A stretch of DNA of 64,000 bases from an uncultured Methanoregulaceae archaeon (GCA_963705255.1 OY970061.1:704001-768000); one strand, 5' to 3'; counted from the stretch's first letter, positions 1,162-34,600 are shown. Numbers and translations: made by a program. The notes: generated by a model not told the origin, from the letters alone.

Positions 1162-2677
1162 TTATCCCTTCTTTCCCGGCTCGTACCGTTCGATCTTCCC
1201 GCAGGCAACCAGTTTCCCGTTTTCCAGGACCGACACGGCGCCATGACCGCCACAGATGAGGCAGCGCCTGCCGGATTTCGCAAGTTCCTGATCAGTTTCC
1301 AGGGCGAGCCCGAGCAGGGTCTTCCGTTCCTGTTTTGCCCGTTCGCTGTCGACGTTCACTGAGGTGACAAGGAACGCCGCAAGAGAGCTGTAGTCTGCCC
1401 GCTCCTTCGTGAGACTCCCGAAATTGATGACGCTGTCGGCAGCAAACAGCAGGCCATACAGCCGTGAATACAGGAAGACCTGCCCGCAGGTGTGGCCGCC
1501 GAGCCCGTCCAGCACCTCGAGGTCGAGGTCCCCGATTTGGACGGTGCCTATGACCGGAAAAATTCCCCGGGTCGTACCGGACGGACGGGAAAAGCAGGTG
1601 ATGGCAGGAGGAGTCCGGAACCGGGAGAACTGGTTGATCATCCGGGTATAAAATGCTTCGAGCACCGAATCTTCGCTCCGGGATCCATACGCACGGTTGT
1701 TTCGCCGGATAATCTCAAGGGTGTCCTCATGCATCAGCACCGGGACAGAAAAATATCCGGATGCCCCGCAATGGTCTGCATCGGCATGAGTCACAACGAT
1801 CCGCGAGAGCTTTTTCATCTCTCCCGCGTCATAGCGCGATAGCATTGCGAGGACGTCATTATGATAAATCCCATACCCGGTGTCGATCATCACCATCTCA
1901 TCCGGCGTCCGGATGAGGAATATGCTGCCCCCGCACGGGACCTGGAAACAGAACAGCGTGGTCCTGTCCGTGATGCAGAACTGCTGGACGTCGGCATAAA
2001 ACCCGTTACCGGTCGTTGCGTTCATCGTCCTGCCGGTGGCGAGCACGCTCTCGAATACCTGGTGGGGATCGCAGACCGCGGGCCATCAGGTCCTGCGCGA
2101 TATGGTTGGTATCGGCAAGGAATGAGAGGATGAATGCCTCCTCGGATTCGCCGATAAGGTCGCGGACCTCCTGGGCATACCGGACGTAAAAGACCGTATC
2201 GTCAAGGTGTTTTCCGGTCTTGTCATACTCGATGATCTCAAGCCGGTACCGGGACTTCAGCTGGTCGAGAAGCTGGTGTACGACAGCACTCTGTTCAAGG
2301 TTGAGGCTGACGGTGAGACGGTCAGGGTACCGGCCCCGGTCATCAAAATCAATACAGGCAATGTTTGCCCCGGCCGATGTCGTATAACTGAGAAATTCAT
2401 ACAGCGCCCCCGGCTGGTGCGGGAGGTACACACAGAACTTCAGGAAGTCCAGCGGCTTCAGCGAGGTCTGCAGGTAGCCGATATCGGCAAGGTCGCGGGT
2501 TATCCGGCTATAGGACTCCGCATCAGCGGTCACTTCATAAAATACCGTCCCGGGATCGATACGCCGGTCGAACTGGATGCGGTTGATATTCCCGTCGTAT
2601 TTTTTGATTATCTCTGCAGCCCGGTGAAGCGAACCCGGTTCATCCGGCATATGCGCAATGAAAGAAAATTTCTCCAT
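1162..2677 (-). CDS. tandem ACT domains + MBL-fold metallo-hydrolase (frameshift ~2070)
   Basis: ACT-like MPDEPGSLHRAA and LPHQPGALYEFL; MBL motifs MIDTG, THADADHCG, GGHTCG, AADS, GGHG; two overlapping ORFs join. Confidence 0.8.
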
Positions 2678-2758
2678 AAGCTCCCGGTTGTGGGATCAGC
2701 ATTGTCCCTTGACGTCGATATACCTATGGTCTTTTTTAAATCCAAAAAAAAGAAAAAA

Positions 2759-3835
2759 TCAGCGCTTGGACCGGCGCACCGATACTGCAATTGCCAGTGC
2801 AGCAGCGATCAGGACACCGAGCACAGGAACCAGCACCGGGAGAGGAACGGGAGACGCGCTCTTGACCAGGGCCGGGGAGACCGTAACGGTCTCCCCTGCT
2901 TTGACCGTGACCTGTATCGAGTACGGCAGGTATCCTGAGGCATTGAGACCGACCGTGTGATCACCCGCAGGGATATTCTCAAGGTTTATTGGTGTCTGCC
3001 CCTTCATGATAGAGTCCACGGAGACCGAGGCCCCGGCAGGAGTTGAAGTAACGGCGATCGTGCCGGTCACCGGACCGGTTACCGGGGGCGTTGCAGGTAC
3101 CAGCGGCGTGGGGGCAGCGGTCACGTTCGATGCCGGGGCCTGCGGAGATACGACCTGCAGGGTAGTCCGGTACGTGGCGGCTGTGGTCGGACTGTCGAGG
3201 GTGACCGTGTAAGAGCCCGGCTGCATATCGATATGGAAGCCCTGGTTGAAGTATCCGGTAGCACTCACCGGAGTGTAGAATGTATGCAAGACCTGTCCAC
3301 TGCCGTCGGTTATCTGCAGCCTGACACTCTCGACATTATTTCTTGCGGTCCCCACGAACTGGACATAGTCCCCGGTTTCAGGCGTTGCCGGGGTCACCGA
3401 GAAGTAGAAATCGGGTTTATCCATCATGACTGATATTGTTGAGGAGTCTGCAGGATTTGAAAGGTCCACCGCAGTTATATAATACCGTGCTGTCTGCAAC
3501 AGTTCCATTCCATTCACCATGGACGTATCCCAGTCATATTGCCACGACCCGTCCGGGTTGGATATGGCCGGGTTTCCCGTGCCCGGAGTACCTTTCAGGT
3601 CCATGAGCGGGACTCCCTCGGCCGGCAACCCGGGACCGGTAATTTTCAAAAACGTGACATTCCCGACGGTGTTTTGCCCATCGAAAATGACCATGTTTCC
3701 GATATATATCCCGCCAGCGCCACGATAGGTAATTGAGACAGAACCCCCATCAGCAGATACCGCTTGGACGATGCATACTGCTGCGACGAGCAGTACCAGA
3801 ACCGGGATCTTCCTGTTCGTATGGATTACACCCAT
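2759..3835 (-). CDS. PEGA-domain cell-surface protein with C-terminal membrane anchor
   Basis: Signal peptide, Pro/Thr linker, PEGA motif VTSTPAGASVSVD..G.TP, C-terminal hydrophobic helix plus RRSKR. Confidence 0.8.
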   Translation of the reverse strand: MGVIHTNRKIPVLVLLVAAVCIVQAVSADGGSVSITYRGAGGIYIGNMVIFDGQNTVGNVTFLKITGPGLPAEGVPLMDLKGTPGTGNPAISNPDGSWQYDWDTSMVNGMELLQTARYYITAVDLSNPADSSTISVMMDKPDFYFSVTPATPETGDYVQFVGTARNNVESVRLQITDGSGQVLHTFYTPVSATGYFNQGFHIDMQPGSYTVTLDSPTTAATYRTTLQVVSPQAPASNVTAAPTPLVPATPPVTGPVTGTIAVTSTPAGASVSVDSIMKGQTPINLENIPAGDHTVGLNASGYLPYSIQVTVKAGETVTVSPALVKSASPVPLPVLVPVLGVLIAAALAIAVSVRRSKR

Positions 3836-3998
3836 TTTTAACCTCTCGATGTACAGGATATCATTTAAAAAGAATATATAATTTTGTTATTGAAGGGCAT
3901 TTTTTAAAAACAAGCCAGTATCCTGACCCTTCTCCGGTATCCCGTGACGAAACTATATCTAGGTTACCGGGCAACCCATGATCAGAGGGAACCTGAAA

Positions 3999-6029
3999 AT
4001 GCCCGACGTGGAATTGGCCAAAAAACAGGGTGAAGACCTGTTGAAAACACGAGTTTTTACAGTACGGCAGTCATTCTCCTACGAAGAGACGGCATACCAC
4101 CTTCCGATCTCGTATGCGCTGACGGGGGTTCCGGTTCATGACCGGAAAGCCGCGCTCGACGTTTATTCCCGGACCGGCAGCAACCCCCTCGTTGCATCGG
4201 AGAGCATCCTGGCTGATATGACCGCGGTCGCGGGAAAGGAACCCGCCCCCTATACCGGTTTTATCAGCGACACCGTCATCCGCAAGCTTGGGTATTCCCT
4301 CGTTGACGGGAGCATCCTCGGTCTTGCCCTTGTCGTCGGGACCCCGCGGAATGCCGGTATGGCAGCAGCGGTCTGCCGCGAACTGCAGGAAAAATACATG
4401 CTCACCTTCCTTGCCGGCAAGGTCATCCCGGCCCTGTCCGGTGCCGGTGTCAGGCTCGGCCTCGAATACCGCCTCATTCCCCTCGGGTCAACACCGTTTT
4501 ACGGTGTGCATTTCGTGGATATCATCGCCCGGGTGGCGATGATGTTCGGGGGCGTCCCGCCGGGTGATACCCACCGGCTCCTGACCTATGCTGCCGAACG
4601 TGCCCGGGCGATCGTCATCGTCTTCCCCGGCCTGACCGATGAAGAGATCGCCCTTGTCGACGGCATGCGGGTGCTCGGGTTCCCCATCCTGACTCCCGGG
4701 GGTTACCAGGGGGGTTCCTGGATACAGGCAGGCCCGGAGGATATTGTCCGGAAGGGGATGGAAGAGAGAGGGATCCGGGTCAATGTCACCGCAATCCCGA
4801 TCCCCATGGGCTGTTCCCCGGCTTTTGAGGGGAAGAGCATCCGCAAGGAAGAGATGTACGTGGAATTCGGCGGGGGCAGGTCTCCTGCTTTTGAGCTGCT
4901 CAGGATGCGCATGCCAGAGGAGATCAGGGACGGGCAGGTGACGGTCATCGGCCCTGAGATCGGGACCATGAAGGAAGGATCTGCAAACCCCCTTGGCATC
5001 ATCATCGAGGTTGCCGGCAGGACCATGAAAAAAGATTACGAGCCGGTGCTGGAGAGGAGGATCCACAACTTCGTCAACTATGGGGAGGGGTCGTGGCACG
5101 TGGCCCAGCGGGACATCATCTGGGTGAGGATCTCGAAGGAGGCCGTTGCAAAAGGCGTCAGGATCGAGCATATCGGAAAGCTGCTGGCCAGCAAATTCCG
5201 GATGGATTTTCCCCAGCTGCTCGACGCGGTCTCGGTCACGCTGATCACGGATGAGAAAAAAGTCCTTGCCGCAAAGAAAGAGGCCGAGGAGGTATATGAC
5301 GAACGCGATGCCCGCATCAAGGGGATGCGGGACCAGGACGTTGATACCTACTACTCCTGCACCCTGTGCCAGACCTTTGCCCCCAACCATGTCTGCGTCA
5401 TCACGCCGGAACGCCCGGCTCTCTGCGGCGCGATCAGCTGGCTCGACGGGAAAATAGCCTTCGAGATGTCGCCGGCCGGGGCGAACCAGCCGGTCGAAAA
5501 AGGAGCGGCCCTGAACGTCCAGAACGGCGAATTCGAAGGGGTGAACCGCTTTATCAAGAAAGCCAGCCACGGGGAGATCGAACGGTGTTCGCTCTACAGT
5601 GTCATGGAATACCCGATGACCTGCTGCGGCTGTTTCGAGGCCATTGCCCTGATGCTGCCGGAAGTGAACGGGATCATGGTAGTGAACCGGGAGTTCAAGG
5701 GAATGACACCCTCGGGCATGACCTTCTCCACGCTTGCCGGGACGATCGGCGGCGGTGCCCAGACACCGGGGTTTGCCGGTATCTCGAAAAATTACATCCT
5801 CTCGGACCGGTTCCTCCAGGGAGAGGGGGGGATCGAGCGGCTGGTATGGATGCCCTCCCAGCTCAAAGAGGAACTCAAGGACCGGCTCATGAATAAAATC
5901 GCAGAGAAAGGGCTTGTCGGCCTCTTCGAGAAGATCGCGGACGAGACGATGGCCGCGACAATCGAGGATCTCGCGGCATTTCTCGAGAAGGTGCAGCACC
6001 CGGCTCTCGGTATGAAACCGCTGGTGTGA
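3999..6029 (+). CDS. acsB: acetyl-CoA synthase beta subunit (AcsB/CdhC), long bacterial-type form
   Basis: A-cluster motifs YSCTLCQTFAPNHVCVITPERPALCGAISWLD and PMTCCGCFE; N-terminal AcsB-like domain; alternative start 3978. Confidence 0.95.
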   Translation: MPDVELAKKQGEDLLKTRVFTVRQSFSYEETAYHLPISYALTGVPVHDRKAALDVYSRTGSNPLVASESILADMTAVAGKEPAPYTGFISDTVIRKLGYSLVDGSILGLALVVGTPRNAGMAAAVCRELQEKYMLTFLAGKVIPALSGAGVRLGLEYRLIPLGSTPFYGVHFVDIIARVAMMFGGVPPGDTHRLLTYAAERARAIVIVFPGLTDEEIALVDGMRVLGFPILTPGGYQGGSWIQAGPEDIVRKGMEERGIRVNVTAIPIPMGCSPAFEGKSIRKEEMYVEFGGGRSPAFELLRMRMPEEIRDGQVTVIGPEIGTMKEGSANPLGIIIEVAGRTMKKDYEPVLERRIHNFVNYGEGSWHVAQRDIIWVRISKEAVAKGVRIEHIGKLLASKFRMDFPQLLDAVSVTLITDEKKVLAAKKEAEEVYDERDARIKGMRDQDVDTYYSCTLCQTFAPNHVCVITPERPALCGAISWLDGKIAFEMSPAGANQPVEKGAALNVQNGEFEGVNRFIKKASHGEIERCSLYSVMEYPMTCCGCFEAIALMLPEVNGIMVVNREFKGMTPSGMTFSTLAGTIGGGAQTPGFAGISKNYILSDRFLQGEGGIERLVWMPSQLKEELKDRLMNKIAEKGLVGLFEKIADETMAATIEDLAAFLEKVQHPALGMKPLV

Positions 6030-6033
6030 GACC

Positions 6034-6990
6034 ATGAGCTTCGACCTGAATTTCGGCTGGACCTCGACCATCGGGGAAGTCGTACTCGGCGCAACGAAGG
6101 CTGATGGCGGGACACGGAGACTCTCGTACCGGATCGGCGGCGGAAAAACACTCCCCTTCCTGGAGAGCCGGGCAGACTCCCCCTCTCCCCTCATCGCCCT
6201 CGAGATCTGCGACTACCTCCCGTTCTGGTCGCCGATCGTGAAGAATTACTGCGGGGACCTGGTCAACAGTGTCGGCGAGTGGGCAAAAGCGGCCGACGCT
6301 TCCTATGGTGCCGACCTCATCCGGCTGTACCTGACCAGCACCCGGCAGCGAAACTTCTCGGATATCGCAACGCTTGGAAAAACGGTCGAAGACGTCCTGT
6401 CGGCATCCAGCCTCCCGCTCGTGATCGAAGGGAGCAACGAGCCGAAGATCGACAGCGAGGTCTTCCAGACGTGCGGCGAGGTGGCGCAGGGGGAGCGCCT
6501 CCTTCTCGGCACCGCGGAAGCAGGGAAGTACCGGAGCGTAGCTGCAGCCGCCCTTGCCTACAACCACTCCATCATCGCCCAGTCGCCAATAGACATCAAC
6601 CTGGCAAAGCAGCTCAATATCCTCCTGAAGGAGATCGGAGTCCAGCGGGACTACATCGTGATCGACCCGTACACCGGCGCCCTCGGCTACGGGTTCGAGT
6701 ATTCCTATTCGGCAATGGAGCGGATCCGGTTCTCCGCCCTCAAGGGGGATGCCGATCTCGCTATGCCGATGATCTGCTCCGCGATCGATTCGCTCACCAT
6801 CAAGGAGGTGCGGGAAGCCGAACCCGGACTCCAGGACGAGATGGCGACCCGGTGGGAGTTTTACACCGGTATCGCGGCAGCGGCGGCCGGCGCTGAGATC
6901 GTCTGCGTACGCCACCCTGGCACCATCCCCCTTCTCCGGAAGGCATTCACCGACATGAAAAAATCTGCAGGCCCCGCGGAGATGCAATAA
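6034..6990 (+). CDS. cdhD: corrinoid Fe-S protein small (delta) subunit
   Basis: IAQSPIDINLAKQLN and DPYTGALGYGFEYSYSAMERIR motifs. Confidence 0.95.
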   Translation: MSFDLNFGWTSTIGEVVLGATKADGGTRRLSYRIGGGKTLPFLESRADSPSPLIALEICDYLPFWSPIVKNYCGDLVNSVGEWAKAADASYGADLIRLYLTSTRQRNFSDIATLGKTVEDVLSASSLPLVIEGSNEPKIDSEVFQTCGEVAQGERLLLGTAEAGKYRSVAAAALAYNHSIIAQSPIDINLAKQLNILLKEIGVQRDYIVIDPYTGALGYGFEYSYSAMERIRFSALKGDADLAMPMICSAIDSLTIKEVREAEPGLQDEMATRWEFYTGIAAAAAGAEIVCVRHPGTIPLLRKAFTDMKKSAGPAEMQ

Positions 6991-8342
6991 TGGCACTCAA
7001 GGCACTGGACATCTATAAGCTCCTCCCGAAGAAGAACTGCAAGGAGTGCGGCGACCCGACCTGCCTCACCTTTGCCATGAAACTTGCCGGCGGGAAGGCA
7101 GACGTTGACCTCTGCCCGTACCTGAGCGAGGAGGCAAAATCCGTTCTCGGGGCGAGCACCCGGCCGCCCATACGGCTCGTGAGGGTCGGGGTCGGCGAGC
7201 GGTTCTTCAAGGTGGGGGAAGAGACGGTTCTGTACCGGCACGAGAAGACCTTCTACCACCCTCCCGGTATCGTCTTCCGGGTCCGCGATACGCAGGCGGC
7301 TCCGGAGATCGCTGCAGTCACCCGCCGGGTGCGGGACGAGACCTTCACCCGCGTGGGTGCCGATCTCCGCTTCAGCGGCATCGCCATCGAGAATACCAGC
7401 GGGTCGGCAGAAACGTTCGCAAAGGCGGTTGCGGCTGTCGAGGCGGAACAGGCCCACCTCCCTCCCGTGCTCATTGCGAAGGATCCTGCAGCGCTCAAGG
7501 CAGGCCTCGTCCACTGCGGCTCCTACCGTCCGCTCCTCCACGCGGCGAATAAGGAAAATTTCCGGGAGATGTGTGCACTTGCGAAGCAGTACGGGTGCCC
7601 GCTGGTCATCCGGGCTGCAACGCCCGAAGGACTCGTCCAGCTGGTGAAAGACTGCACAGCAGAAGGAGTGCAGGACCTCATGCTCGATCCCGCACCGGAG
7701 ACGCTCGGGGCGTTCATCACCCGCTCCACGCTGATACGTCAGCTCGCGATCACGCGTTCGGTCCCCGAGCTCGGGTATCCTGTTTTTCTCGATTCCACCC
7801 TGACCGGGCAGCAGGACGCAGCAATCGCACTGGGCATCGTCAAATATGCCTCGGTCATCGTGACCGACCCCCTCGCACCAGGCCCGGCGAAGGCCGCCCT
7901 CACCCTCCGGCAGAACATCTACACCGATCCCCAGAAGCCGATCCAGATGAACCCGGGGCTGTACCGGGTCGGGACCCCGGACAAGGACGCGCCGGTCCTG
8001 ATGACGGTGAACTTCTCGCTCACCTTCTTCACGCTTCAGGGGTACCTCGAGTCTACCCGGATCCCCTGCTTCATGCTGATCGTCGATACCGAGGGAATGT
8101 CGGTCCTGACCGCGGTCGCGGCAGGAAAACTGAACGAGTTCCTGGTCCGGGACGCGATCAGGAAGTTCGGGGTGGAGAGCGAGGTTTCCCACCGGAAGCT
8201 GATCATTCCCGGGTATGCCTCGCCGCTTTCAGGGCAGATCGAGGAGGCGACCGGCTGGAAGGTGCTCGTCGGCCCCCGCGACGCCGCCGAGATCGGGGAG
8301 TTCCTCCACGAGGAGTGGAAGAAGCAGGCCGGGACGCAATGA
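6990..8342 (+). CDS. cdhE: corrinoid Fe-S protein large (gamma) subunit
   Basis: LLPKKNCKECGDPTCLTFAMKL Fe-S motif, GEETVLYRHEKTF, RQNIYTDPQKP, TVNFSLT. Confidence 0.95.
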   Translation: MALKALDIYKLLPKKNCKECGDPTCLTFAMKLAGGKADVDLCPYLSEEAKSVLGASTRPPIRLVRVGVGERFFKVGEETVLYRHEKTFYHPPGIVFRVRDTQAAPEIAAVTRRVRDETFTRVGADLRFSGIAIENTSGSAETFAKAVAAVEAEQAHLPPVLIAKDPAALKAGLVHCGSYRPLLHAANKENFREMCALAKQYGCPLVIRAATPEGLVQLVKDCTAEGVQDLMLDPAPETLGAFITRSTLIRQLAITRSVPELGYPVFLDSTLTGQQDAAIALGIVKYASVIVTDPLAPGPAKAALTLRQNIYTDPQKPIQMNPGLYRVGTPDKDAPVLMTVNFSLTFFTLQGYLESTRIPCFMLIVDTEGMSVLTAVAAGKLNEFLVRDAIRKFGVESEVSHRKLIIPGYASPLSGQIEEATGWKVLVGPRDAAEIGEFLHEEWKKQAGTQ

Positions 8343-8526
8343 TTTTCTGGATCCCAGCCCGAAAAGACCACCTCTCCCTCATCCATTCCGCGGTGTCCGG
8401 GATCGTCCGGAGGGTGCGGAAGGAGGGGAAAGGGCAGGGAATAATTGCTCAACAAAGAATCCTGATGGATTCGTCTCGTCTTTGTGGTCCTGATGGATCA
8501 CGAAAGACACCGCAGGCTATTTGACC

Positions 8527-8535
8527 CTTATATCC
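8527..8535 (+). promoter_or_regulatory. putative TATA box for acsV (leaderless-type spacing)
   Basis: CTTATAT ~26-30 bp upstream of ATG 8561. Confidence 0.4.
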
Positions 8536-8560
8536 CAATCTCTGTTAAGGAACTACCAGC

Positions 8561-10462
8561 ATGCGTACCGTTACCTTCCTTCCCAGTTATCGCAAGATCG
8601 AAGTGGAACCGGGGACAACCATCCTCGATGCAGCCCAGCGGGCAGGGCTGAACATAAACGTAGTCTGTGGCGGGCAGGGCAAATGCGGCAAATGCGTTGT
8701 GTTCATCCAGTCGGGAAAAGTTGAATTCGACCGCCAGAAATACGGGCGGTTCTTTTCCGAGGCCGAACTCCAGAAAGGAGCCTGTCTCGCATGCGAGGGG
8801 TCCGTCCAGGGAGACATCCATATTGTCATTCCCGAGACAACGCTGATCCAGGAGCAGAAGATCCTTGTTGAAGGCGTCGAGAACCGGATCGATTTCCACC
8901 CGTCCGTGAAAAAATATTATGTCGAGCTCCAGCCCCCGAGCCTTGCCGACCCGTCACCGGACCTGTCACGGCTCCTCTGGGGCATCCAGAAGAGTGGCGG
9001 GCCGGTGGCAGAGAAGATGTACGCACCGCTCGAGGTGCTCCGCGAGATCCCCGGGATCCTGCGCCACAGTGAATGGAAAGTGACCGGCACCATCGGCCTC
9101 GTGCCCGGCGGCTACCGCCTCCTCGACCTCCAGGAGAACGATACCTCCTCGCGGGTCTTCGGGGCAGCCGTAGACCTCGGCTCCACGACCGTCGTCGTGT
9201 ATCTCTGGGACCTCGTCACGGGAAAGGTTGTCAGTGTTGCATCGAACTATAACAAGCAGATCAGCTGCGGCGAGGACATCCTTGCCCGGGTGAACTTCGC
9301 ACGAAAGAACGGCCTTGCGAAACTCCAGTCACTTGCGGCGGAGAGCATCAACCAGGCGCTCACCACTGCATCCAACACCGCCGGGATCGACCGCGAGGAC
9401 ATCTACGAAGTGGTTGTTGCAGGAAACACGGTCATGACGCATATGCTGCTCGGCATCGACCCGGCCTACATGATAGCCGAACCCTATGTCCCGGTCGTCA
9501 GGCGGGCCCTCTCGGTGGCTGCGGGCAGGATCGGCATCACCTGCAACCCGAACGGCGGGCTCTTTGTCTTCCCGGCCGTCAGTGACTTCATCGGGGGCGA
9601 CATCATATCCGATATCCTGGCCTGCGGCATGAACGAACGGGAGGAGATCTCGCTCCTGATCGATATCGGCACCAACTTCGAGGTCGTGCTCGGCAACAGG
9701 GAATGGATGTTCTCCTGCGCCGGTGCCGCCGGGCCTGCTCTCGAAGGCGGCGAAGTCCTCTTCGGCATGAGGGCAAATCCGGGTGCGATCGAGAAGCTCA
9801 CGATCGACCCTGCGACCCTCGACCCCACGTACTCCACCATCAACGGTATCAGACCGCGGGGGATCTGCGGATCGGGCCTGATCGACCTGCTCGCCGAACT
9901 GCTGGCAGCCTGCGTGATTGACAGGACAGGGCGCATCAATACCGAGATCAGCAACCCGCGTATCCGGAAGACCGCCCATTTCCCGGAGTTTGTGATCGCA
10001 TGGGCGGATGAGACCGAGATCAACAAGGAGATCGTCATTACGGAGAACGATATCAAGAACCTGATCATGAGCAAAGCCTCGGTCCACGCGGCCTGCGTGA
10101 CCCTGATGAAGGAAGCCGGCGTCTCCCGTCGCGAGATATCCACCATCTATTTTGCCGGGGCTTTTGGGAATTACCTTGACAAGAAGAATGCCACCACCAT
10201 CGGCCTGATCCCCGAGATTGATCCCGACCAGATCAGGAACATCGGGAACGGTGCCGTGGCCGGTGCCAATATCGCGCTCATCAACCGGCGGACGAGAAAG
10301 ATTCTGGACGAAATCGCTTACAAGATCGCGTATATCGAGCTGAACGCGGAGAGCTCGTTCATGGACGAGTACACCTCGAGCTCGTTCCTCCCGCACACCG
10401 ATCTCTCGCTCTTCCCGATGGTGCAGAAGATGCTGGACGAGTGCCGTATCCGGAAGGCCTGA
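8561..10462 (+). CDS. acsV: reductive activator of corrinoid protein (RACo/AcsV; 2Fe-2S + ASKHA ATPase)
   Basis: CGGQGKCGKC..LAC ferredoxin; DLGSTT, DIGTNFE, AAGPALEG, GICGSGLID, AGAFG motifs. Confidence 0.92.
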   Translation: MRTVTFLPSYRKIEVEPGTTILDAAQRAGLNINVVCGGQGKCGKCVVFIQSGKVEFDRQKYGRFFSEAELQKGACLACEGSVQGDIHIVIPETTLIQEQKILVEGVENRIDFHPSVKKYYVELQPPSLADPSPDLSRLLWGIQKSGGPVAEKMYAPLEVLREIPGILRHSEWKVTGTIGLVPGGYRLLDLQENDTSSRVFGAAVDLGSTTVVVYLWDLVTGKVVSVASNYNKQISCGEDILARVNFARKNGLAKLQSLAAESINQALTTASNTAGIDREDIYEVVVAGNTVMTHMLLGIDPAYMIAEPYVPVVRRALSVAAGRIGITCNPNGGLFVFPAVSDFIGGDIISDILACGMNEREEISLLIDIGTNFEVVLGNREWMFSCAGAAGPALEGGEVLFGMRANPGAIEKLTIDPATLDPTYSTINGIRPRGICGSGLIDLLAELLAACVIDRTGRINTEISNPRIRKTAHFPEFVIAWADETEINKEIVITENDIKNLIMSKASVHAACVTLMKEAGVSRREISTIYFAGAFGNYLDKKNATTIGLIPEIDPDQIRNIGNGAVAGANIALINRRTRKILDEIAYKIAYIELNAESSFMDEYTSSSFLPHTDLSLFPMVQKMLDECRIRKA

Positions 10463-10467
10463 ACAGC

Positions 10468-11511
10468 ATGGCAAAGATGATTGCATCCCCCCATTCACTT
10501 GCCACCGGCGTAGGCGCGCTCCCCCATACCGATCCGGTCGAAGCGTGTGACGATGTGCTTGCCGTCTTCCCGGAGTTCCCGTACATACCCACCCTCCCGG
10601 ACCGGGGCCAGCTGGAGAGCATCGTCTTCAACGACTCCGAGCAGCTACCGGGACGGGTTATCCGGGAAGACCGGCTCCTCTTCGACAGCACCCGGGATCA
10701 GACTGCAGCAATGGAATCCGTGTACATGGACTATGTCGAAGGCAATTATGCCGCGTACGGCCTTCACCGGGAATATGCCTCTGCTTTCATCGAGATGATG
10801 TCCCGCCGGTTGCCGGCCGTTCAGGCGCTCAAGTGCCAGGTGACCGGACCGGTCACGTTCGGGATGCAGGTCGTTGACGCGAACAAGCGGCCCATCTACT
10901 ACGATACCCAGCTCGCCGACGTCCTGTCCAAGATGATCGCCCTCAAGGCCCGCTGGTGCGAGGAGGAGATGAAGAAGAAGACCGGCGTGTCCGGGACCCT
11001 TGTCGTCCTGAACGAACCGTACCTTGCATCGCTCGGCTCTTCGGTCGTGCCGGTAGACCGCGAGAGCGTCAGGACCGGCTGGGAGGACATCGCGGCACTT
11101 GTCGAAGGCGGGCTCGGCGTCCACTGCTGCTCGAACACGGACTGGGAGTTTGTACTTGGCCTCAACCCATCCGTTGTCTCGCTCGATGCCTATGCCACGG
11201 CCAGGGAGTTCCTCCTGTACACGGAAGCCGTCATCTCCTACATGGAACGCGGGGGAGTTGTTGCCTGGGGGATCGTACCCGCGGATTACCGGATCTTTAC
11301 TACGGAGACCGTGGACTCGCTGTATGAGCGCTACCTCGCAATACGATCGCAGCTCACGGCCCGGATGCCGGAAGATCTCTTCGATGCCCAGTCGCTCATA
11401 ACCCCGAGCTGCGGTATCCGGTTTGCCGATCGCAGCGGGTCCCGTGCAATCATGGGAGCAGCAGCCGGGATATCCCGGCGTATCAGGGCAGAAAACCGTG
11501 ACCTGCCATAA
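10468..11511 (+). CDS. core-MetE-type (folate-independent, MesB-like) methionine synthase
   Basis: TGVGALPHTDP N-terminus, KCQVTGPVTFG, NEPYL, Zn ligands GVHCC and ITPSCG; single barrel of ~347 aa. Confidence 0.75.
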   Translation: MAKMIASPHSLATGVGALPHTDPVEACDDVLAVFPEFPYIPTLPDRGQLESIVFNDSEQLPGRVIREDRLLFDSTRDQTAAMESVYMDYVEGNYAAYGLHREYASAFIEMMSRRLPAVQALKCQVTGPVTFGMQVVDANKRPIYYDTQLADVLSKMIALKARWCEEEMKKKTGVSGTLVVLNEPYLASLGSSVVPVDRESVRTGWEDIAALVEGGLGVHCCSNTDWEFVLGLNPSVVSLDAYATAREFLLYTEAVISYMERGGVVAWGIVPADYRIFTTETVDSLYERYLAIRSQLTARMPEDLFDAQSLITPSCGIRFADRSGSRAIMGAAAGISRRIRAENRDLP

Positions 11512-11521
11512 TGGGATCACC

Positions 11522-12289
11522 ATGCCTCAAAAGCCATTCACCATTGCCATCTCCGGGAAAGGCGGCACCGGAAAGACGACCATCAGTTCGCTCCTCGTCC
11601 GCTCCTTCATCGAACTGGGGGAGGCACCGGTCCTTGCCGTGGACGCGGACCCGAATGCCAACCTCCACGAGGCCCTCGGCGTCACCGTCCGCGAGACGCT
11701 CGGGAGCATGCGGGAGGAGGCGTTCACCCGCACCATTCCCCCGGGCATGAACCGGCACGACTATGTGAAATACCGTTTCCGGCAGGCCCTTGTCGAAGCC
11801 GAAGGGTTCGACCTGGCTGCCATGGGAAGGCCTGAAGGGAGCGGGTGCTACTGTTTTGCCAATGATCTGCTCTCGGAATGCATGCTGAATCTTGAACGGG
11901 ACTATCACTTCATTGTCATTGATACCGAAGCAGGCATGGAGCACATCAGCCGGGGGACTATCGGGAAACCGGATATGCTCCTTATCGTGAGCGACCCCGG
12001 GGCCCGCGGGCTCCGCACGATCTCACGTATCCGGGAGATCGCGACCCAGCTGGGCCTTGAGAATGGGAAGATCCATATCGTATTCAACCGGTACAAATCC
12101 GGCACAGCCCCGGTCGACATCGGGGACGAGTCGCCAATAGCGATTGTCCCGGACGATCCTGCGGTCGAGAGCGCCGACCTTGCAGCTTCCCCGGTGTCGC
12201 TGATCCCGGCCGGAAGTCCTGCCCGGATCGCGGTGCGGGCACTTGCCGAGAAGATACGGGCGATGGCACGGGAAAAGGGCGGCAGGTAA
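11522..12289 (+). CDS. cooC: CooC/AcsF nickel-insertion ATPase
   Basis: SGKGGTGKTT, VDADPN, GSGCYC, DTEAGMEH. Confidence 0.92.
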   Translation: MPQKPFTIAISGKGGTGKTTISSLLVRSFIELGEAPVLAVDADPNANLHEALGVTVRETLGSMREEAFTRTIPPGMNRHDYVKYRFRQALVEAEGFDLAAMGRPEGSGCYCFANDLLSECMLNLERDYHFIVIDTEAGMEHISRGTIGKPDMLLIVSDPGARGLRTISRIREIATQLGLENGKIHIVFNRYKSGTAPVDIGDESPIAIVPDDPAVESADLAASPVSLIPAGSPARIAVRALAEKIRAMAREKGGR

Positions 12290-21293: not shown

Positions 21294-23953
21294 ATGGTAC
21301 CTGAACCACAGGAGCAGGACGAAAAACTCACGCCGGTCATGCGGCAGTACCGGGAGCTCAAGGCACAATACCCGGACACCGTGCTCCTCTTCCGGATAGG
21401 GGACTTCTACGAGACCTTCGAGGCTGACGCGGAGCTCATCTCGCGGGAGCTGGAGATCGTGCTCACCTCGCGGTCGAAGAGCGGGGACAACCGCGTTCCC
21501 CTCGCAGGTGTCCCGTACCACGCGGTGGACGGTTACATCGCGAAACTTATCGGCAAAGGCTACAAGGTGGCGGTCTGCGACCAGGTCGAAGACCCGAAGA
21601 CCGCGAAGGGGATCGTGAAACGCGGGATCACCCGGGTCATCACCCCTGGCACCGTGATCGACTCTTCGATGGTCCCCTCGTCAGCGGCATCCTACCTCAT
21701 GGCCCTCTGCCCGGACAAGAAGCGCAGCGAGTGGGGCATCGCTCTGCTCGACATCTCTACCGGGGAATTTTTTGTCACGGTTACCGGGCATGACAGCAGT
21801 TTCCAGAACGTGATCTCCGAGATCGCCCGGTACCGCCCGGCGGAATGCATCGTCCCGGCGGGGGTGAGCGGTGAACTGAGGCAGCGCATAGCGGACCAGG
21901 GCGTGGTCGTCACCCCGTTCCGGGACGAAGTCTTCGGGAACGATACCGCATTCCGCACCCTCACCGCCCACTTCCGCGTCGCATCGCTCGGCGGGTACGG
22001 GTGCGGGGAGAACGAAGCGGCGACCGGTGCAGCCGGTGCGGCCCTCGCGTATGCAAAAGAGACGCAATATTCGGAGCTCGGCCATATCAGCAGCCTTAGC
22101 CTGCGCACCTCCTCGCAGAGCATGATGCTCGACGCGATCACCCTGCGCAACCTCGAAGTCAGGGAGAGCATCCGCGGCGGTGCCCGGGGGGCAACCCTCC
22201 TCTCCTCCCTCGACCTGACCAAAACCCCGATGGGGAGCCGGCTCCTGAACCGGCACCTCACTCGCCCGCTGACGGATACCGGGGAGATCAACAGGCGGCT
22301 GGATGCCGTGGAATTCCTCGCCGCCCACACGGTGCTCCGCCTCGAGCTCCGCTCACAGCTCGCACGCTGCGCGGATATCGAGCGGATCGCGGCCCGGATA
22401 GCCTACGGGAACGCCGGGCCGCGCGATCTCCTTGCACTTGCCGGTTCGCTCTCGGCACTGCCGGAGCTGAAGAGGACGGCGGGTGACGCCGGGGGCGACA
22501 CCATCCCGGACGTGATCCGGACGGCAATTGCGGACATCCGGGATCTCCCGGAGACCATCGATCTCATACGGAAGGCCATCGGAGACGACCCCCCGGCAGT
22601 CGCCCGGAACGGCGGGGTGATCCGTACCGGGTACTCCACTGAACTCGACGGGATACGCGGGGTGCTGCACTCGGGGAAGGGATGGATCGCCGCGCTCCAG
22701 GAGAAAGAGCGGGAGCGGACCGGCATCAGGTCCCTCAAGATCGGGTACAACCGGATCTTCGGGTACTACATCGATGTGACGAAACCGAACCTGCACCTCG
22801 TCCCGCCCCACTACGAGCGGAGGCAGACGACCGCAACCGGTGAGCGGTATACCCTTCCCGAACTGAAGGAGAAGGAGTCGGTCATCACGAGCGCGGACGA
22901 ACGGGTGCTTGCGCTCGAACGCGATCTCTATACCGGGCTTATCGCTCTCCTCCGGAACATAATCCCCGATCTCCAGGCAACGGCACGGGGGATCGCGGTG
23001 CTGGACGTTTCCGCAAGCCTCGCGGAAGCGGCAAAGACCCGGGATTTCGTACGCCCGCAGCTGAACGACGGGGATGCCATCGTTATCCGCGACGGGAGGC
23101 ACCCGGTGGTGGAGCAGGGAGTCAGAGGGGGGTTCGTGCCCAACGACACCGAGCTCTCCGGGAGCAGGACCCAGATCATGATCATCACCGGCGCAAACAT
23201 GGCGGGGAAATCCACGTACATGCGTGCGACCGCACTCATCTGCATCATGGCACAGGCAGGCAGTTTTGTCCCCGCACGGCACGCGGCCATCGGGGTCATT
23301 GACCGGATCTTCACCCGGGTCGGGGCATTCGACGACCTCGCAAGCGGGCAGAGCACATTCTTCGTCGAGATGCTCGAACTGGCAAACATCCTCAACAATG
23401 TGACACCCAGGAGCCTTGTCATCCTGGATGAGATCGGGAGGGGGACGAGCACCGCGGACGGGTCTTCGATTGCAAGGGCCGTACTTGAGTTCCTTCACGG
23501 GAAAACCCGGCCGGGCCAAAGACGCTCTTTGCCACGCACTTCCACGAGCTGGTCGCCATGGAAGATACCCTCAGGCGGGTGAAAAACTACCACTTCGCGG
23601 TGCAGGAGACGAACAACGAGGTGATCTTCCTCCGCAGACTCATCCCGGGAGCGACCGACAAGAGCTATGGTATCCACGTGGCCCGGCTCGCCGGTATCCC
23701 GAAGAAGGTGACCGAACGGGCAGAAGCCCTCCTCAGCGAGAGCATGAACCGGGCCGTTCCTGCCGGCACCCGGCCTCAGCGGTATACCCAGATCCTGCTC
23801 GCCGATGACAGTGGGACGGATAAGATCCCTGCCCCCAACCCGGTTCTCGAAGAGCTCGCCAGGATAAAACCGGACGAGATGACGCCCCTGCAGGCCCTTG
23901 CAAAGATCGCAGAACTGCAGCGGTCGCTTGACAACAGCGGAGGCACACCATGA
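21294..23953 (+). CDS. mutS: DNA mismatch repair protein MutS (frameshift ~23510)
   Basis: TPVMRQY, GDFYETF, TGANMAGKSTYMR, STFFVEM, DEIGRGTST, SYGIHVARLAG. Confidence 0.95.
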
Positions 23954-25725
23954 GCAGCCCCCCGATCCGTATCCTGGATCCTGCCACCGTCAACCAGATC
24001 GCGGCCGGTGAAGTGGTGGAACGTCCTGCGTCCGTAGTGAAGGAGCTGGTGGAGAACGCGATCGATTCGGGCGCCCGGTCGATCAGGATCGAGCTCGCAT
24101 CCAACGGCGCATTGAACAGCATCAGGGTAACCGATGACGGGAGCGGGATGTCGGATGAGGATGCCCTGCTCGCATTCACCCCGCACGCGACGAGCAAGAT
24201 CGCGACGATCGATGACCTTCACCATATCCGCACGCTCGGCTTCCGGGGCGAGGCACTGGCAAGTATCGCTGCCGTCTCGCGCGTGACCCTCGTGACCAGA
24301 ACGGATGACGGGGCTGCCGGGACAAAGATCGTTATCGAGGGCGGAGAGATACAAGAGCATGCTGTCACCGGTGCACCGGCAGGCACCAGCGTGCTCGTCG
24401 GGGATCTCTTCTTCAACACCCCGGCACGGAAAAAGTTCCAGAAGAGCAGAAATACCGAGCTCGCCCATATCCACGCGATCATGGAAGGGATCTGCCTCGC
24501 TCACCCGGACATATCGTTCCGGCTCTTCCATAACCGCAACGAACAGCTGGTGACCGACAGCACGCCGGATATCCTTGACACGATTGCGCGCATCTACGGG
24601 GGCGATGCTGCCCGCGGACTGGTTCCCGTCAGTTTCTCACTGCCATTTATGACCGTCTCCGGTTATATCTCGCCCCCGTCACGCTCGCGCAAGGACAGTG
24701 CCCGGATGCTTGTCGCCATCAACCAGCGCTACATCTCTTCACCCCTCATCAACAACGCGATCCGGGAAGGCTACGGGACCCTGCTGCCGAAGGACCGGCT
24801 CCCGGTCACCTTCCTCAGGCTTGAGATCGATACCGGACTGGTAGACGTGAACGTACACCCGACGAAGAAGCTGGTGCGGCTCACCCGGGAGAAGGAGATC
24901 GGCGACGCGATCAAAGAAGCGGTGAGAACGGCCCTGCTGACCCATGATCTCATTCCTGCAGCAGAGGCCCCGCCGTTCGTGGGTCAATCACTCACGGCTG
25001 GACCAGCGGATCTCCCCGCCCCGGTTTATCACTATGCCGGTTCAGCCCCATCTGGTGTGAGCGAGACAAGTCACCCGGGTACTTCGGCAACCGACCGGCA
25101 ACTCCGGCAGACCGAGCTTGTCGCTGGCATCTCCCCCGTCATCCCGCTCCTTCCGGCAATGGAGGTTATCGGTGAATTTGGCGGCATCTACATCCTCGTG
25201 CGGATAGCTGGTGATGAACTCATCGTGATCGACCAGCATGCAGCCCACGAACGGATCCTGTACGAGCAGGTGACTGCCAGGCTCGTGGGCGAGCGCCGTT
25301 CGCAGGAGCTCATCGAACCGGTCGTCCTCTACCCGACGCACAGGGATGCTGCGATCATCCGCGACCTGCTCGCAGAACTCGCGCAGGAAGGGTTTGTTCT
25401 CGAGGACTTCGGCAGGGACTCCTTTCTTGTCCGTGCCGTCCCGGTCGTGCTCGGGCGGCTTGAGGAGACCGGGGTTATCGACGATATCATCAGCGATCTG
25501 GTGACCGGCGACCCGGCCCGGTCTGTCAGCAACCGCGAACGGATCACCCGCATCATCGCCTGCCGCGGCGCGATCAAGGCGGGCACGGTCTGCACGCAGG
25601 AGCAGTGCCAGCGCATAGTGAACCAGCTCCGGCTCACGAAAAACCCGTTCACCTGCCCGCATGGCCGCCCGACCATGATACGGTTTACCCGGGAAGATCT
25701 CGACGCGATGTTTAAACGAACCTGA
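23950..25725 (+). CDS. mutL: DNA mismatch repair endonuclease MutL
   Basis: NQIAAGEVVERPASVVKELVEN, GFRGEAL, DQHAAHERILYE, ACR, CPHGRP. Confidence 0.96.
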   Translation: MSSPPIRILDPATVNQIAAGEVVERPASVVKELVENAIDSGARSIRIELASNGALNSIRVTDDGSGMSDEDALLAFTPHATSKIATIDDLHHIRTLGFRGEALASIAAVSRVTLVTRTDDGAAGTKIVIEGGEIQEHAVTGAPAGTSVLVGDLFFNTPARKKFQKSRNTELAHIHAIMEGICLAHPDISFRLFHNRNEQLVTDSTPDILDTIARIYGGDAARGLVPVSFSLPFMTVSGYISPPSRSRKDSARMLVAINQRYISSPLINNAIREGYGTLLPKDRLPVTFLRLEIDTGLVDVNVHPTKKLVRLTREKEIGDAIKEAVRTALLTHDLIPAAEAPPFVGQSLTAGPADLPAPVYHYAGSAPSGVSETSHPGTSATDRQLRQTELVAGISPVIPLLPAMEVIGEFGGIYILVRIAGDELIVIDQHAAHERILYEQVTARLVGERRSQELIEPVVLYPTHRDAAIIRDLLAELAQEGFVLEDFGRDSFLVRAVPVVLGRLEETGVIDDIISDLVTGDPARSVSNRERITRIIACRGAIKAGTVCTQEQCQRIVNQLRLTKNPFTCPHGRPTMIRFTREDLDAMFKRT

Positions 25726-27907: not shown

Positions 27908-28489
27908 TCAGAAATTCCCGATGAAGAGCGAGTAAAGGGCAGCGGACGGTTCGGGCGGGGACTCAATAGTCTTTACAAGGATCTTCTCCTCGGGATACCC
28001 GAGGTTCTCGCAGAGGGCGACCTGGATGGGGGGGGAAAGTGCTGCAAGCCGGGAATAGAGCTCCCTGACATTGAACTTCGGGTCGGCAAGGAGAAAGACT
28101 ATCTTTCCCCGCTTCACCTCGTCCACGGTCTCGGCCATGCCTTTCTCGTGACCCCTTCCATGGGCGACGACGACAGAGACGCGCGAGAGGGGGATATGGA
28201 GCCGGGCGGACGCGACCTGGAGGGACGAGATGCCCGGGATTACCTCCCCGGAGAGGTACCCGAGCCCGGCGAGCATGGGGTCCCCGGTCGAAAGGAGGAC
28301 AGCGTCGGTATGGAGTTTGCCGAGGTTCTTGTAATCATCGATCGACCTGATCATGCACCCCTCGGGCAGGTATGCCCGGGCGAGCCCGATTGCCCGCTCG
28401 GAGCCGAATACCGTCCGCGCCCTCCTGAGTTCCTTGATCGCCTGCTCGGTGAGCATCCCCGGGCCGCAACCGACACCGATAATCTTCAT
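27908..28489 (-). CDS. cbiE: cobalt-precorrin-7 C5-methyltransferase
   Basis: GVGCGPG, STGDPMLAGLG, IPGISSLQ, ENLGYPEE; operon context. Confidence 0.88.
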   Translation of the reverse strand: MKIIGVGCGPGMLTEQAIKELRRARTVFGSERAIGLARAYLPEGCMIRSIDDYKNLGKLHTDAVLLSTGDPMLAGLGYLSGEVIPGISSLQVASARLHIPLSRVSVVVAHGRGHEKGMAETVDEVKRGKIVFLLADPKFNVRELYSRLAALSPPIQVALCENLGYPEEKILVKTIESPPEPSAALYSLFIGNF

Positions 28490-29490
28490 GGACTCTCCCC
28501 GATAACCGTACCGTTCCGGTCCACCAGTATGACCCTGACATCGGGACGGAGCCGCCGGAAGTCCGTAAGGGTCTTTTCAACGATCGCTGCAAAGCCCGGG
28601 GTTGCCGAGAGTTCCTCCACGGTCGCTGCACCGGTCCCGTCAAGGATCCCGGGACTGATATACCGGAGGATGAGGGCCGGGAGGCCGCAGAGGACGACCT
28701 TTCCGCGTGACGCCGCAAGCGCCTCGCCGATCTTCCCGCCAATGAGGATCACGTCCCGGTCCGGGAAGAGGAGGCGTGCATAGCGCAGCCCGACCCGCCC
28801 GGTGGTCAGCACGGGACGGTCTGCTGCTGCAACCCGTTCGGCCATTGACTCGGTCAAATGGTCGTCCCAGGGTTCGACGAGCCCGGTGGTCCCGAGAACC
28901 GAGATCCCGCCTTCCACGCCGACACGCGGGTTCAGTGTCTGCTGCCCGACCTCCCGCCCTTCCGGAATATGAAGGGTCACCCGGACTCCGGGAAGCCCGG
29001 TGATATCGAGTGCTTCCCGGATCGAAGAGTGCAGGCATTCGAGCGCCGGCGGGCTCACGGCGGGGGCCCCCTTTTTGTACCGGGGGGTATCCCGCGAGAA
29101 CCTGCCGACCCCCTCGCCGAATACGAGATGGACCCCGTGGGAATACGGGACTGCTTCGGCAACGAATTCTATCCCTGCAGTAACATCCGAAGGGTAATCC
29201 CCGCCGAATTTCCTGCCGGATGCCCGCCCGCCGTTTGCGTCTACCGGAACTTCGAGAACAAGACCGCACGGGATCCGGACCGGGACTGATTTCACGTCCC
29301 CCGACAGGGAAAGAACCGCGGCCTTGGACACGGCAGCAGCGGTCGTGCCGGTCGTAAAACCCCGTACCAGCACGGTGCCGGACGAGGTCAGGACGGCGAG
29401 GCCCTGTTTCACCAGCGTCAGCTTGTCGGGTGACCGGCACTTCCCCACCCATGCCTCCGGGTATTCAAAGCCGCTGACCGGGTCCAGCAT
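28486..29490 (-). CDS. cbiD: cobalt-precorrin-5B C1-methyltransferase
   Basis: RGFTTGTTAAA, DVT, GEGVG, TLNPRVGVEGGISVLGTTG. Confidence 0.92.
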   Translation of the reverse strand: MLDPVSGFEYPEAWVGKCRSPDKLTLVKQGLAVLTSSGTVLVRGFTTGTTAAAVSKAAVLSLSGDVKSVPVRIPCGLVLEVPVDANGGRASGRKFGGDYPSDVTAGIEFVAEAVPYSHGVHLVFGEGVGRFSRDTPRYKKGAPAVSPPALECLHSSIREALDITGLPGVRVTLHIPEGREVGQQTLNPRVGVEGGISVLGTTGLVEPWDDHLTESMAERVAAADRPVLTTGRVGLRYARLLFPDRDVILIGGKIGEALAASRGKVVLCGLPALILRYISPGILDGTGAATVEELSATPGFAAIVEKTLTDFRRLRPDVRVILVDRNGTVIGESP

Positions 29491-30151
29491 CTCCGTTACC
29501 CTCGATGAAGATGGTGATGCACTCGTTGATCGCTGCGACGGCAACCGGCGTGCCCCCCCGCGTCCCCTCGGTAGAGATGGACGGGATATCGATAGTGCGG
29601 AGGAGTTCCTTGGACTCGGCCGCGTTGACAAAACCTACCGGAGTACCTATGACCACCGCCGGCCTGACGCCTTCCCGGATCATCGCGCAGAGCGTGATGA
29701 GGGCCGAAGGCGCATTGCCGATGACGACAATCGAACCTTCCAGCTGTTCACGGAGAGCGATAACCCCGGCCGAGCTCCGGGTGATTCCCCGTTCCGACGC
29801 GATCTCTGCCCCGGAGTCCAGGGCGCAGAGTACGGGGCAGGCGTGCCCCTTCTTCTGGATGCCCGCCTGGACCATCCGGATATCGGTGATGATCGGTGCA
29901 CTGCGCCGGAGTGCCCCGAGCGCTGCAGGGACCGGGTCGTACCGGAACCGCATCAGCTCCGCCATGCCGAAATCGCCCACTGCCACGGAACACCGCTGCT
30001 TCACGCGGTCCTCGTCAGTCGTATTGCCGATAACTCCCCGTGCAAGAGTACGTGACTTTTTTGAGATCTCGTACGCTTCCTTCGTCTCTGCGCCGGGATC
30101 AATATACGTATTTGCGGTGGTATCCCCGTGGCGTGATAATTCCTTTGACAT
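29465..30151 (-). CDS. cbiC: precorrin-8X methylmutase
   Basis: ITDIRMVQAGI, TRS, IGNAPSAL, PVGFVNAAESK, RGGTPVA. Confidence 0.92.
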   Translation of the reverse strand: MSKELSRHGDTTANTYIDPGAETKEAYEISKKSRTLARGVIGNTTDEDRVKQRCSVAVGDFGMAELMRFRYDPVPAALGALRRSAPIITDIRMVQAGIQKKGHACPVLCALDSGAEIASERGITRSSAGVIALREQLEGSIVVIGNAPSALITLCAMIREGVRPAVVIGTPVGFVNAAESKELLRTIDIPSISTEGTRGGTPVAVAAINECITIFIEGNGDAGPGQRL

Positions 30152-34458: not shown

Positions 34459-34600
34459 GCATAGTTCTACTCCGTTTTTATTATAAAAATGTTTTTAATA
34501 ATTGTTCTGTTAACCTGTCAGGAGGCTAGAAAATTTTTGACATATTGAAAGAATCAATTACCCAATCTCAGACGCGATAGCATCGCCATTTCCTTTCTTT

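Follow-up and report, generated by a model that had tools for sequence, protein, structure and literature searches.

Gene content of the acs-mesB cassette

The window analysed here is a stretch of 64,000 nucleotides from the genome of an uncultured Methanoregulaceae archaeon (GCA_963705255.1, OY970061.1:704001-768000). [quoted passage not shown] In Pfam and NCBIfam scans none of the six cassette proteins matched Prismane/carbon monoxide dehydrogenase (CODH), CdhB or Pterin_bind (AcsE). The preliminary description of this DNA, which reported a co-oriented acsB-cdhD-cdhE-acsV-(core MetE)-cooC series with neither CODH nor AcsE in the cluster, therefore stands in this respect, as the six ORFs match the families that it named.

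Table 1. Genes of the cassette and the non-coding segments associated with them, in window coordinates.
Feature	Position	Strand	Description
AT-rich intergenic spacer upstream of acsB, 142 bp	3836..3977	.	Likely promoter region, judged from TATA-like runs in the sequence
acsB	3978..6029	+	683 aa; three-domain (A1-A3) acetyl-CoA synthase; alternative start ATG 3999
acsD	6034..6990	+	318 aa; small CoFeSP subunit, short form
acsC	6990..8342	+	450 aa; large corrinoid/Fe-S CoFeSP subunit
Gap acsC/acsV, 218 bp	8343..8560	.	Probable border of two transcription units
acsV/RACo	8561..10462	+	633 aa; ATP-dependent reductive activator of corrinoid protein
MesB-family (core-MetE-like) zinc methyltransferase (predicted)	10468..11511	+	347 aa; divergent Methanomicrobiales subclade
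CooC/AcsF-like P-loop ATPase	11522..12289	+	255 aa from ATG 11522; putative Ni-insertion accessory

AcsB scored 911.7 bits against NF040764 (cut-off 800) and combines PF03598 (CdhC) with PF19436 (ACS_CODH_B_C), about 275 additional N-terminal residues preceding the CdhC domain; the protein is termed bacterial-type by its domain architecture and NCBIfam model only. Its A-cluster pattern, C461-x2-C464-x8-C473-x9-C483 together with C554-G-C556, recurs in the CdhC encoded elsewhere in the same genome, to which AcsB is 44% identical over residues 275-677, and identity to a Dehalococcoidales AcsB reaches 46% over residues 92-682. AcsD (PF03599) was best matched by the short-form delta subfamily NF003376 (354 bits, cut-off 280) and fell under the cut-offs of the longer archaeal-type models; delta-subunit matches in the fused CdhDE of this genome begin at about residue 21 and take up its first ~385 residues, whereas AcsD has only 318 residues in total. 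AcsC exceeded the cut-off of NF003195 (549.5 bits against 306), contains PF04060 (FeS) and PF03599, and displays the four-cysteine pattern C17-x2-C20-x4-C25-x16-C42. All four RACo domains (PF14574, PF17651, PF17650 and PF00111) are present in AcsV/RACo, which scored 561 bits against NF040756, under the exception cut-off of 800.

The ATPase yielded only PF13614, PF01656 and other MinD/ParA-superfamily matches, none of them at an NCBIfam cut-off, and it possesses the P-loop GKGGTGKT and a C-x-C motif. The ORF as listed begins with TTG 11423; ATG 11522 agrees better with the relatives, and in these the gene is kept directly after mesB. We take the C-x-C motif to be a mark of CooC/AcsF proteins, and the meanings attached to the A-cluster and four-cysteine patterns are presumed in the same manner; genomic context and this motif make the ATPase a putative CooC/AcsF nickel-insertion protein. 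The metal-ligand motifs of the cassette are intact.

In several relatives (loci L013, L014, L016 and L051) the acsC-acsV junction has taken up insertions of 1.3-3.4 kb. Since insertions are confined to this junction, two transcription units are suggested, acsB-acsD-acsC and acsV-mesB-cooC. Of the largest ORFs inserted there, those of L013 and L014 are thioredoxin/DsbA-like, that of L051 codes for a SpoIIE phosphatase and that of L016 is without a Pfam match; the idea that such insertions supply the missing methyltransferase was rejected, given that the Pfam-matched inserts are unrelated to methyl transfer and the L016 ORF is unmatched. The neighbours of the cassette on both sides, coding for a PEGA S-layer-like protein and a pyruvoyl arginine decarboxylase, are unrelated and lie on the opposite strand. 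A cobamide biosynthesis block on the minus strand (27908-32470, with three TP_methylase genes, cbiD and cbiG) is located ~16 kb downstream of this corrinoid-dependent cassette, and an Rfam search of the window returned no match.

Family assignment and active site of the MesB-like protein

The product of the fifth gene had no meaningful match in Pfam (at E values up to 10), in NCBIfam or, by phmmer, in the Protein Data Bank (PDB), and a profile of 78 aligned homologues retrieved from the PDB only 3rpd, at a non-significant E value of 0.38. The protein was for this reason identified by its fold, motifs and homologues. An AlphaFold 2 model built on the 78 homologues (predicted local distance difference test 95.9, predicted template modelling score 0.93) was matched best in Foldseek by MetE (1xpg), MesD (3rpd) and 1u1h, all with a probability of 1.00 and template modelling scores of 0.59-0.63 (E about 3e-7 for 1xpg and 3rpd), while UroD and MtaA-like chains ranked next. 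The modelled fold is thus a (beta/alpha)8 barrel resembling the C-terminal domain of MetE, and the protein has the single-domain, ~340-residue layout of MesB, devoid of a folate-binding N-terminal domain.

An exhaustive HMMER search gathered 1492 cluster representatives at E values up to 0.001, and the 78 aligned homologues were drawn from these. In a scan of species-representative genomes, homologues from Methanomicrobiales were 52-83% identical to it, and the nearest ones outside this order came from Chloroflexota (Anaerolineae and Dehalococcoidia, one of them from Dehalococcoidaceae; 34-41%) and from a Methanomassiliicoccales genome (35%). MesA is the core methionine synthase of methanogens, with MtrA as its predicted methyl donor; the MesA of this genome scored 21.6 bits against the MesB-like protein in a pairwise comparison and was detected by the profile of the 78 homologues at E 1.3e-6. 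Against the homologue from a Dehalococcoidaceae metagenome-assembled genome (MAG), BLASTP gave 35% identity over 332 residues (214 bits, E 2e-71); this score refers to that homologue and not to Dehalococcoides mccartyi DET0516 itself, to which the MesB threshold of at least 173 bits by phmmer applies in Price 2021 (PMC7857596; this work, Deobald 2020, PMC7005905, and a 2026 preprint, PMC13370988, are drawn on here from the parts of their text that were accessible).

Throughout the 78 aligned homologues H219, C221 and D240 are unchanged, while at least 90% have C315; in an alignment of 24 Methanomicrobiales sequences all four are invariant. The four zinc ligands are found in 34 of the 35 full-length Methanomicrobiales sequences, and the sequence from locus L034 has Asp for the usual Glu at the non-ligand position 183. 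Their spacing (His-x-Cys...Asp...Cys, +2/+19/+75) nearly equals the +2/+19/+76 of the D. mccartyi enzyme, the ligands of which are numbered 214/216/235/311 in Price 2021 and His215/Cys217/Asp236/Cys312 in Deobald 2020. Taken together, the MetE/MesD-like fold, the intact zinc site and the homologues from Dehalococcoidaceae and other Chloroflexota identify the protein as a MesB-family (bacterial-type core-MetE) homologue by descent, as had been proposed for this gene, and its methyltransferase activity is predicted on the same grounds.

The residues expected to anchor homocysteine are a different matter. Ser433 and Asp599 of Escherichia coli MetE have counterparts that are mostly conserved in MesB proteins, namely residues 15 and 177 in DET0516 (Price 2021). 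In our alignment of 78 homologues the corresponding columns, which were mapped to the MetE pocket by motif (G-S...P, D-E-P) and published positions and not from a solved complex, are at least 90% Ser and at least 90% Asp, whereas the protein of the window has A17 and N182. Position 17 is occupied by Ala in 22, Gly in 6 and Ser in 7 of the 35 full-length Methanomicrobiales sequences, and position 182 by Asn in 28, Ser in 3 and Asp in 4; in the bacterial homologues Ser or Thr is combined with Asp in 41 of 42. Twenty-two clade-specific substitutions, including Q42T, M52I and Y53V in N-terminal motifs, separate the Methanomicrobiales from the bacterial group, and in a quick tree (midpoint root; support from the Shimodaira-Hasegawa-like approximate likelihood ratio test, SH-aLRT, only) the Methanomicrobiales sequences form one clade with an SH-aLRT of 100, from which we claim no donor lineage. 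A homologue in a Chloroflexota MAG (L091) has Gly and Asn at the two anchor positions, so the change is not exclusive to methanogens.

With Ala and Asn at these positions, the thiol acceptor of the protein is uncertain. It is conceivable, if unlikely, that most Methanomicrobiales MesB-like enzymes no longer methylate homocysteine and act on some other thiol (coenzyme M, a mercapto-acid or sulfide), with a product other than methionine. Besides the replaced anchors and the clade-specific substitutions, such a shift would be in line with the retention of Ser and Asp in the homologue from Methanomassiliicoccales (locus L088), an order in which MesB is the sole methionine synthase according to the accessible part of Price 2021, and with the shared fold of the MtaA-like coenzyme M methyltransferases. 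Moreover, MesA is near-universal among Methanomicrobiales and in this genome keeps both anchors, which would leave MesB free to change its function. [quoted passage not shown] In addition, the Ser/Asp states reappear on the quick tree inside the Ala/Asn clade (L024 and L025), suggesting that the two states may be near-equivalent and that the anchor change may be tolerated rather than decisive. A bolder version of the same idea, to which we give only slight credence, is that the MesB-like enzyme has been re-tooled for another thiol, perhaps coenzyme M, and that the cassette acts as a CODH-independent, Mtr-bypassing shunt of the acetyl-CoA methyl group through a private CoFeSP to a sulfur carrier, either one of methanogenesis or a different one; were this true, 'strictly hydrogenotrophic' methanogens would gain a hidden route from the acetate methyl group to methyl-thiols. 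Whichever acceptor is used, the altered anchors warn against annotating these genes plainly as 'methionine synthase'.

Conservation of the cassette and its coexistence with CODH

Among 37 Methanomicrobiales loci fetched with the MesB profile, the complete set of six, in this order, is found in 30; six others are truncated by a contig end and one (L046) is interrupted. Such an arrangement, kept in 30 of 37 loci, is not due to chance. The genera concerned include Methanoregula, Methanolinea, Methanoculleus and Methanofollis, and the cassette is also found in Methanospirillaceae. L046, a Methanospirillaceae contig, represents a rearranged variant (1571-7217) in which acsV and mesB are ~2.7 kb apart and no acsC was found in the 1.5 kb upstream of acsV. 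The 43 loci from outside Methanomicrobiales comprise 41 from Chloroflexota, one from Sysuimicrobiota and one from Methanomassiliicoccales; in 41 of them no acs gene was detected within the fetched flanks of mesB, and in the Methanomassiliicoccales locus mesB-cooC stands beside acsC-acsD-acsB.

Conservation of this kind bears on the question of whether the cassette has any current function. A cluster devoid of CODH and AcsE, redundant in this genome with MesA and with a complete archaeal acetyl-CoA decarbonylase/synthase (ACDS), and detected in no more than 73 of the 201 genomes surveyed, might be regarded as the decaying remnant of a transferred bacterial-like Wood-Ljungdahl cluster. We consider this highly improbable: the six ORFs are intact, though other genes in the window look frameshifted, as are the metal-ligand motifs; order and content are kept across the four genera and Methanospirillaceae; and the MesB-like proteins, which form the single clade described above, show a mean column identity of 68% and 70 invariant columns in the alignment of 24 sequences.

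The distribution of CODH was assessed in a survey of 201 Methanomicrobiales genomes, this one included, which are a sample of related genomes, so that the counts are descriptive and not a test. The MesB profile matched the above 73 genomes, 72 of which also have an acetyl-CoA synthase. Over the whole survey, cdhA was detected in 45 genomes and a CooS-type CODH over the cut-off in 97. Of the MesB carriers, 22 (including this genome) have cdhA only, nine have cdhA with a full CooS and two cdhA with a partial CooS; a full CooS is the only CODH in 29 and a partial CooS in one; and the remaining ten have neither. Of these ten, seven reach a completeness of 93% or more, and one is closed. When five of them (98-99% complete, one closed) were checked again with the whole Prismane family, three gave no match and two a hybrid-cluster protein only. 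The cassette is thus kept alongside one or the other CODH, alongside both, or in the absence of any, and, as ten carriers out of 73 show no cdhA and no CooS, be it full or partial, it is not CODH-dependent.

A proposed methyl transfer from acetyl-CoA to a thiol

Only AcsB and the MesB-like enzyme are encoded in the cassette as catalysts of methyl transfer, and some relatives carry it without CODH; a flow that begins with acetyl-CoA cleavage is on these grounds the most likely. We would give a probability of about one half to a chain complete in itself, with AcsB transferring the methyl group of acetyl-CoA to CoFeSP, from which the MesB-like enzyme would hand it to a thiol, probably homocysteine, and with release of carbon monoxide (CO). 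In such a chain AcsB, a Ni-Fe-S acetyl-CoA synthase with an N-terminal A1 domain, would convert acetyl-CoA into methyl-CoFeSP, CO and CoA; AcsC and AcsD would together constitute the CoFeSP that carries the methyl group; AcsV/RACo would re-reduce oxidised corrinoid; the CooC-like ATPase would mature the nickel site; and the zinc enzyme of the MesB family would transfer the methyl group from CH3-Co(III)-CoFeSP to the thiol, which, if homocysteine as seems most probable, would become methionine. Here, the separate archaeal CdhAB could serve to oxidise the CO.

We infer from this arrangement the direct transfer from CoFeSP to MesB, the direction of AcsB, the origin of the methyl group in acetyl-CoA, the release of CO and the identity of the thiol. 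The link between CoFeSP and MesB, taken by itself, is likely, and likelier than the chain as a whole. A predicted complex of AcsC residues 316-450 with the MesB-like protein scored 0.01 against a mark of 0.32, a value that speaks neither for nor against this link.

The system most closely resembling this proposal is the incomplete Wood-Ljungdahl pathway of D. mccartyi, where the core-MetE was characterised and a flow from AcsB through AcsCD to core-MetE with CO release was proposed (Deobald 2020). Both comprise AcsB, AcsCD and a MesB-family zinc methyltransferase (cbdbA481, equivalent to DET0516, in D. mccartyi) and share the proposed flow from acetyl-CoA to CH3-CoFeSP plus CO and on to a thiol; in both an AcsE-type methyl-pterin:CoFeSP methyltransferase is missing, and AcsB and AcsCD of the cassette have their catalytic motifs intact. 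Bacterial CoFeSP needs AcsE as a dedicated methyltransferase, and only the archaeal CoFeSP, CdhDE, methylates itself (PMC13370988). The missing pterin-loading gene, the short-form AcsD and the CODH-free carriers therefore favour a flow of the Dehalococcoides type, and the analogy with Dehalococcoides drawn in the preliminary description is apt. The two systems differ in that the host here is a methanogen with methyl-tetrahydromethanopterin (CH3-H4MPT), MesA and a full archaeal ACDS, in that mesB lies inside an acs operon, in contrast to the flanks of most mesB loci outside Methanomicrobiales, and in that Ser/Asp have become Ala/Asn at the anchor positions.

Several observations weigh against the proposed chain. 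About 90 kb upstream of the cassette, at C1:609553-618471 (C1 being the contig), a complete archaeal operon consists of cdhA, cdhB, cdhC, cdhDE and a second RACo gene. Its CdhA scored 1150 bits against TIGR00314 and is adjoined by CdhB (the pair at C1:609553-612455), its CdhC is a two-domain protein of 467 aa, and cdhD and cdhE form one ORF of 895 aa with no stop in between (L011 9858-12545, that is C1:613858-616545), which may be a genuine fusion or else an error of assembly. CooS was not found in the genome, the best TIGR01702 match (E 6.9e-7) being the cdhA locus itself; the cassette thus does not correspond to a bacterial bifunctional CODH/acetyl-CoA synthase (AcsABCDE), in which AcsA/CooS is encoded together with AcsB and binds to its A1 domain. 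Overall, 63 of the 73 MesB carriers have a match to cdhA, CooS or both (CooS being partial in three), and the genome without any CODH that characterises the Dehalococcoides type is seen in the ten others and not here. A canonical MesA is encoded at C1:2079347-2080366 (NF002119, 397 bits, cut-off 258), as it is in 193 of the 201 genomes of the order; the single MesB of this genome would hence not be its sole methionine synthase, and methionine can be made without the cassette. At the anchor positions, A17 and N182 stand where MesB, MesA and MetE have the homocysteine-anchoring Ser and Asp, and just 4 of the 35 Methanomicrobiales sequences retain both residues, three of them from the Methanospirillaceae branch. 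Finally, methanogens already hold CH3-H4MPT as a methyl pool.

The preliminary description is accordingly supported in part. 'CODH-less' is correct for the cluster, and for some related genomes, but incorrect for this genome, where the cdhA-containing operon encodes a complete possible CODH partner; this answers by half to the complete, co-expressed CODH partner that the description itself named as evidence against it. The dedicated supply of methyl groups for methionine that it envisaged is not needed in a cell with MesA, and acetate as the methyl source, with CO released, is something that we, too, can only infer.

With the full cdh operon in this genome, acetyl-CoA synthesis from CO made by CdhAB could also take place. 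On this view the cassette would serve as another, anabolic acetyl-CoA synthase next to the ACDS: CoFeSP, methylating itself or served by an unlinked enzyme, would receive its methyl group from CH3-H4MPT, AcsB would combine this with CO from CdhAB, CooS or the environment into acetyl-CoA, and the MesB-like enzyme would tap methyl-CoFeSP for methionine. This explanation is kept alive by the occurrence of CODH in 63 of 73 carriers, with cdhA in this genome and 32 others and a full CooS in 38, and we regard it as a tentative one, of rather low probability. According to the available text of PMC13370988, the A1 domain may help to capture external CO, AcsB occurs in Methanomicrobia, and hybrid systems of the CdhC and AcsB types exist in Methanococcales. 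CooS is, besides, located within 5 kb of the cassette in three surveyed genomes (G065, G155 and G163), a further point against a CO-releasing chain, although in only those three. On the other side, the cluster has no methyl-pterin methyltransferase (the genome encodes one Pterin_bind protein, ~930 kb from the cassette, and one MtrH), AcsD is of the short form and not of the long archaeal type, ten carriers have no CODH to supply CO, and a complete ACDS for this very task is already present in the genome.

The three loci with nearby CooS (L093, L094 and L095, from G065, G155 and G163) belong to three Methanoregulaceae genera and are organised alike: behind the cassette, and on its strand, come cooS and next a second CooC-like ATPase gene. 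In L093 (3923-8187) a 361-aa ORF without significant Pfam match separates the cassette from cooS, and a DUF2114 gene follows. In these loci the cassette could work as a full CODH/acetyl-CoA synthase. That CooS was part of the ancestral cassette is not supported; where both are on the same contig and listed, the distance is elsewhere tens to hundreds of kb.

Relation to known systems and other features of the window

The cassette is real and conserved, and the linkage of its genes is already known in outline (Price 2021, Deobald 2020, PMC13370988). In Price 2021 the family was named MesB, mesB was noted to share an operon with acsC and acsD in methanogen genomes (section 8 and S1 Table), and CoFeSP was independently deduced from this methanogen operon to be the methyl donor of MesB. 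The cassette described here is that operon; the accessible part of that paper makes no mention of the three-domain AcsB, of the RACo and CooC genes, of CODH-free carriers or of the Ser/Asp replacement, and beyond it our literature search found nothing on the function of the cassette in Methanomicrobiales. PMC13370988 lists Methanomicrobia among the archaea with a three-domain AcsB and mentions methanogens with both types of acetyl-CoA synthase; in the text available, it links AcsB neither to MesB nor to the absence of CODH, and its hybrid examples are Methanococcales clusters with an archaeal CODH. The CODH-free methanogen carriers, the cross-tabulation of MesB with cdhA, CooS and MesA and the systematic replacement of the anchors were not encountered in the literature searched, as far as its accessible text extends, and appear to be new.

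Within this genome, the cassette resembles the ACDS operon (CdhABCDE, C1:609553-616545) in having an A-cluster acetyl-CoA synthase, a two-subunit CoFeSP, which gives the genome two sets of CoFeSP genes, and an adjacent RACo. The ACDS is distinguished by CdhA and CdhB, a two-domain CdhC and a long, fused CdhDE that would methylate itself from pterin; the cassette, for its part, has an A1 domain on AcsB, a short AcsD, no CODH and an added thiol methyltransferase. MesA is, like the MesB-like protein, a single-domain zinc (beta/alpha)8 methyltransferase of the MetE superfamily, but it stands alone, away from corrinoid genes, keeps Ser and Asp, and is found in far more genomes of the order.

In peat and freshwater sediments, Methanoregula and its relatives are major producers of methane, and what carbon they need is determined by the way they deal with acetate and one-carbon units. 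For two questions, the physiological methyl donor of MesB-type methionine synthases and the role of an acetyl-CoA synthase in a cell without CODH, the cassette provides a natural system of small size.

Two other genes of the window appear to be split. At 21294-23953 on the plus strand, mutS consists of a 762-aa ORF with MutS domains I-V and an overlapping ORF (23558-23953) with the end of domain V, followed by mutL at 23950-25725, possibly as the result of a frameshift or an assembly indel. On the minus strand (56417-58377), within an archaeal che cluster that includes CheC and CheF, cheA looks divided into two overlapping ORFs for the Hpt and P2 domains (57721-58377) and for the dimerisation, ATPase and CheW domains (56417-57757). 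Together with the 89.5% completeness of this single-contig genome, these two cases give a hint that the assembly contains indel errors; none of the six cassette genes is disrupted. A low-GC island at 34001-36000 (GC content 0.39, compared with ~0.58 around it), with ORFs of 401 and 98 aa that have no Pfam match, may be foreign DNA.

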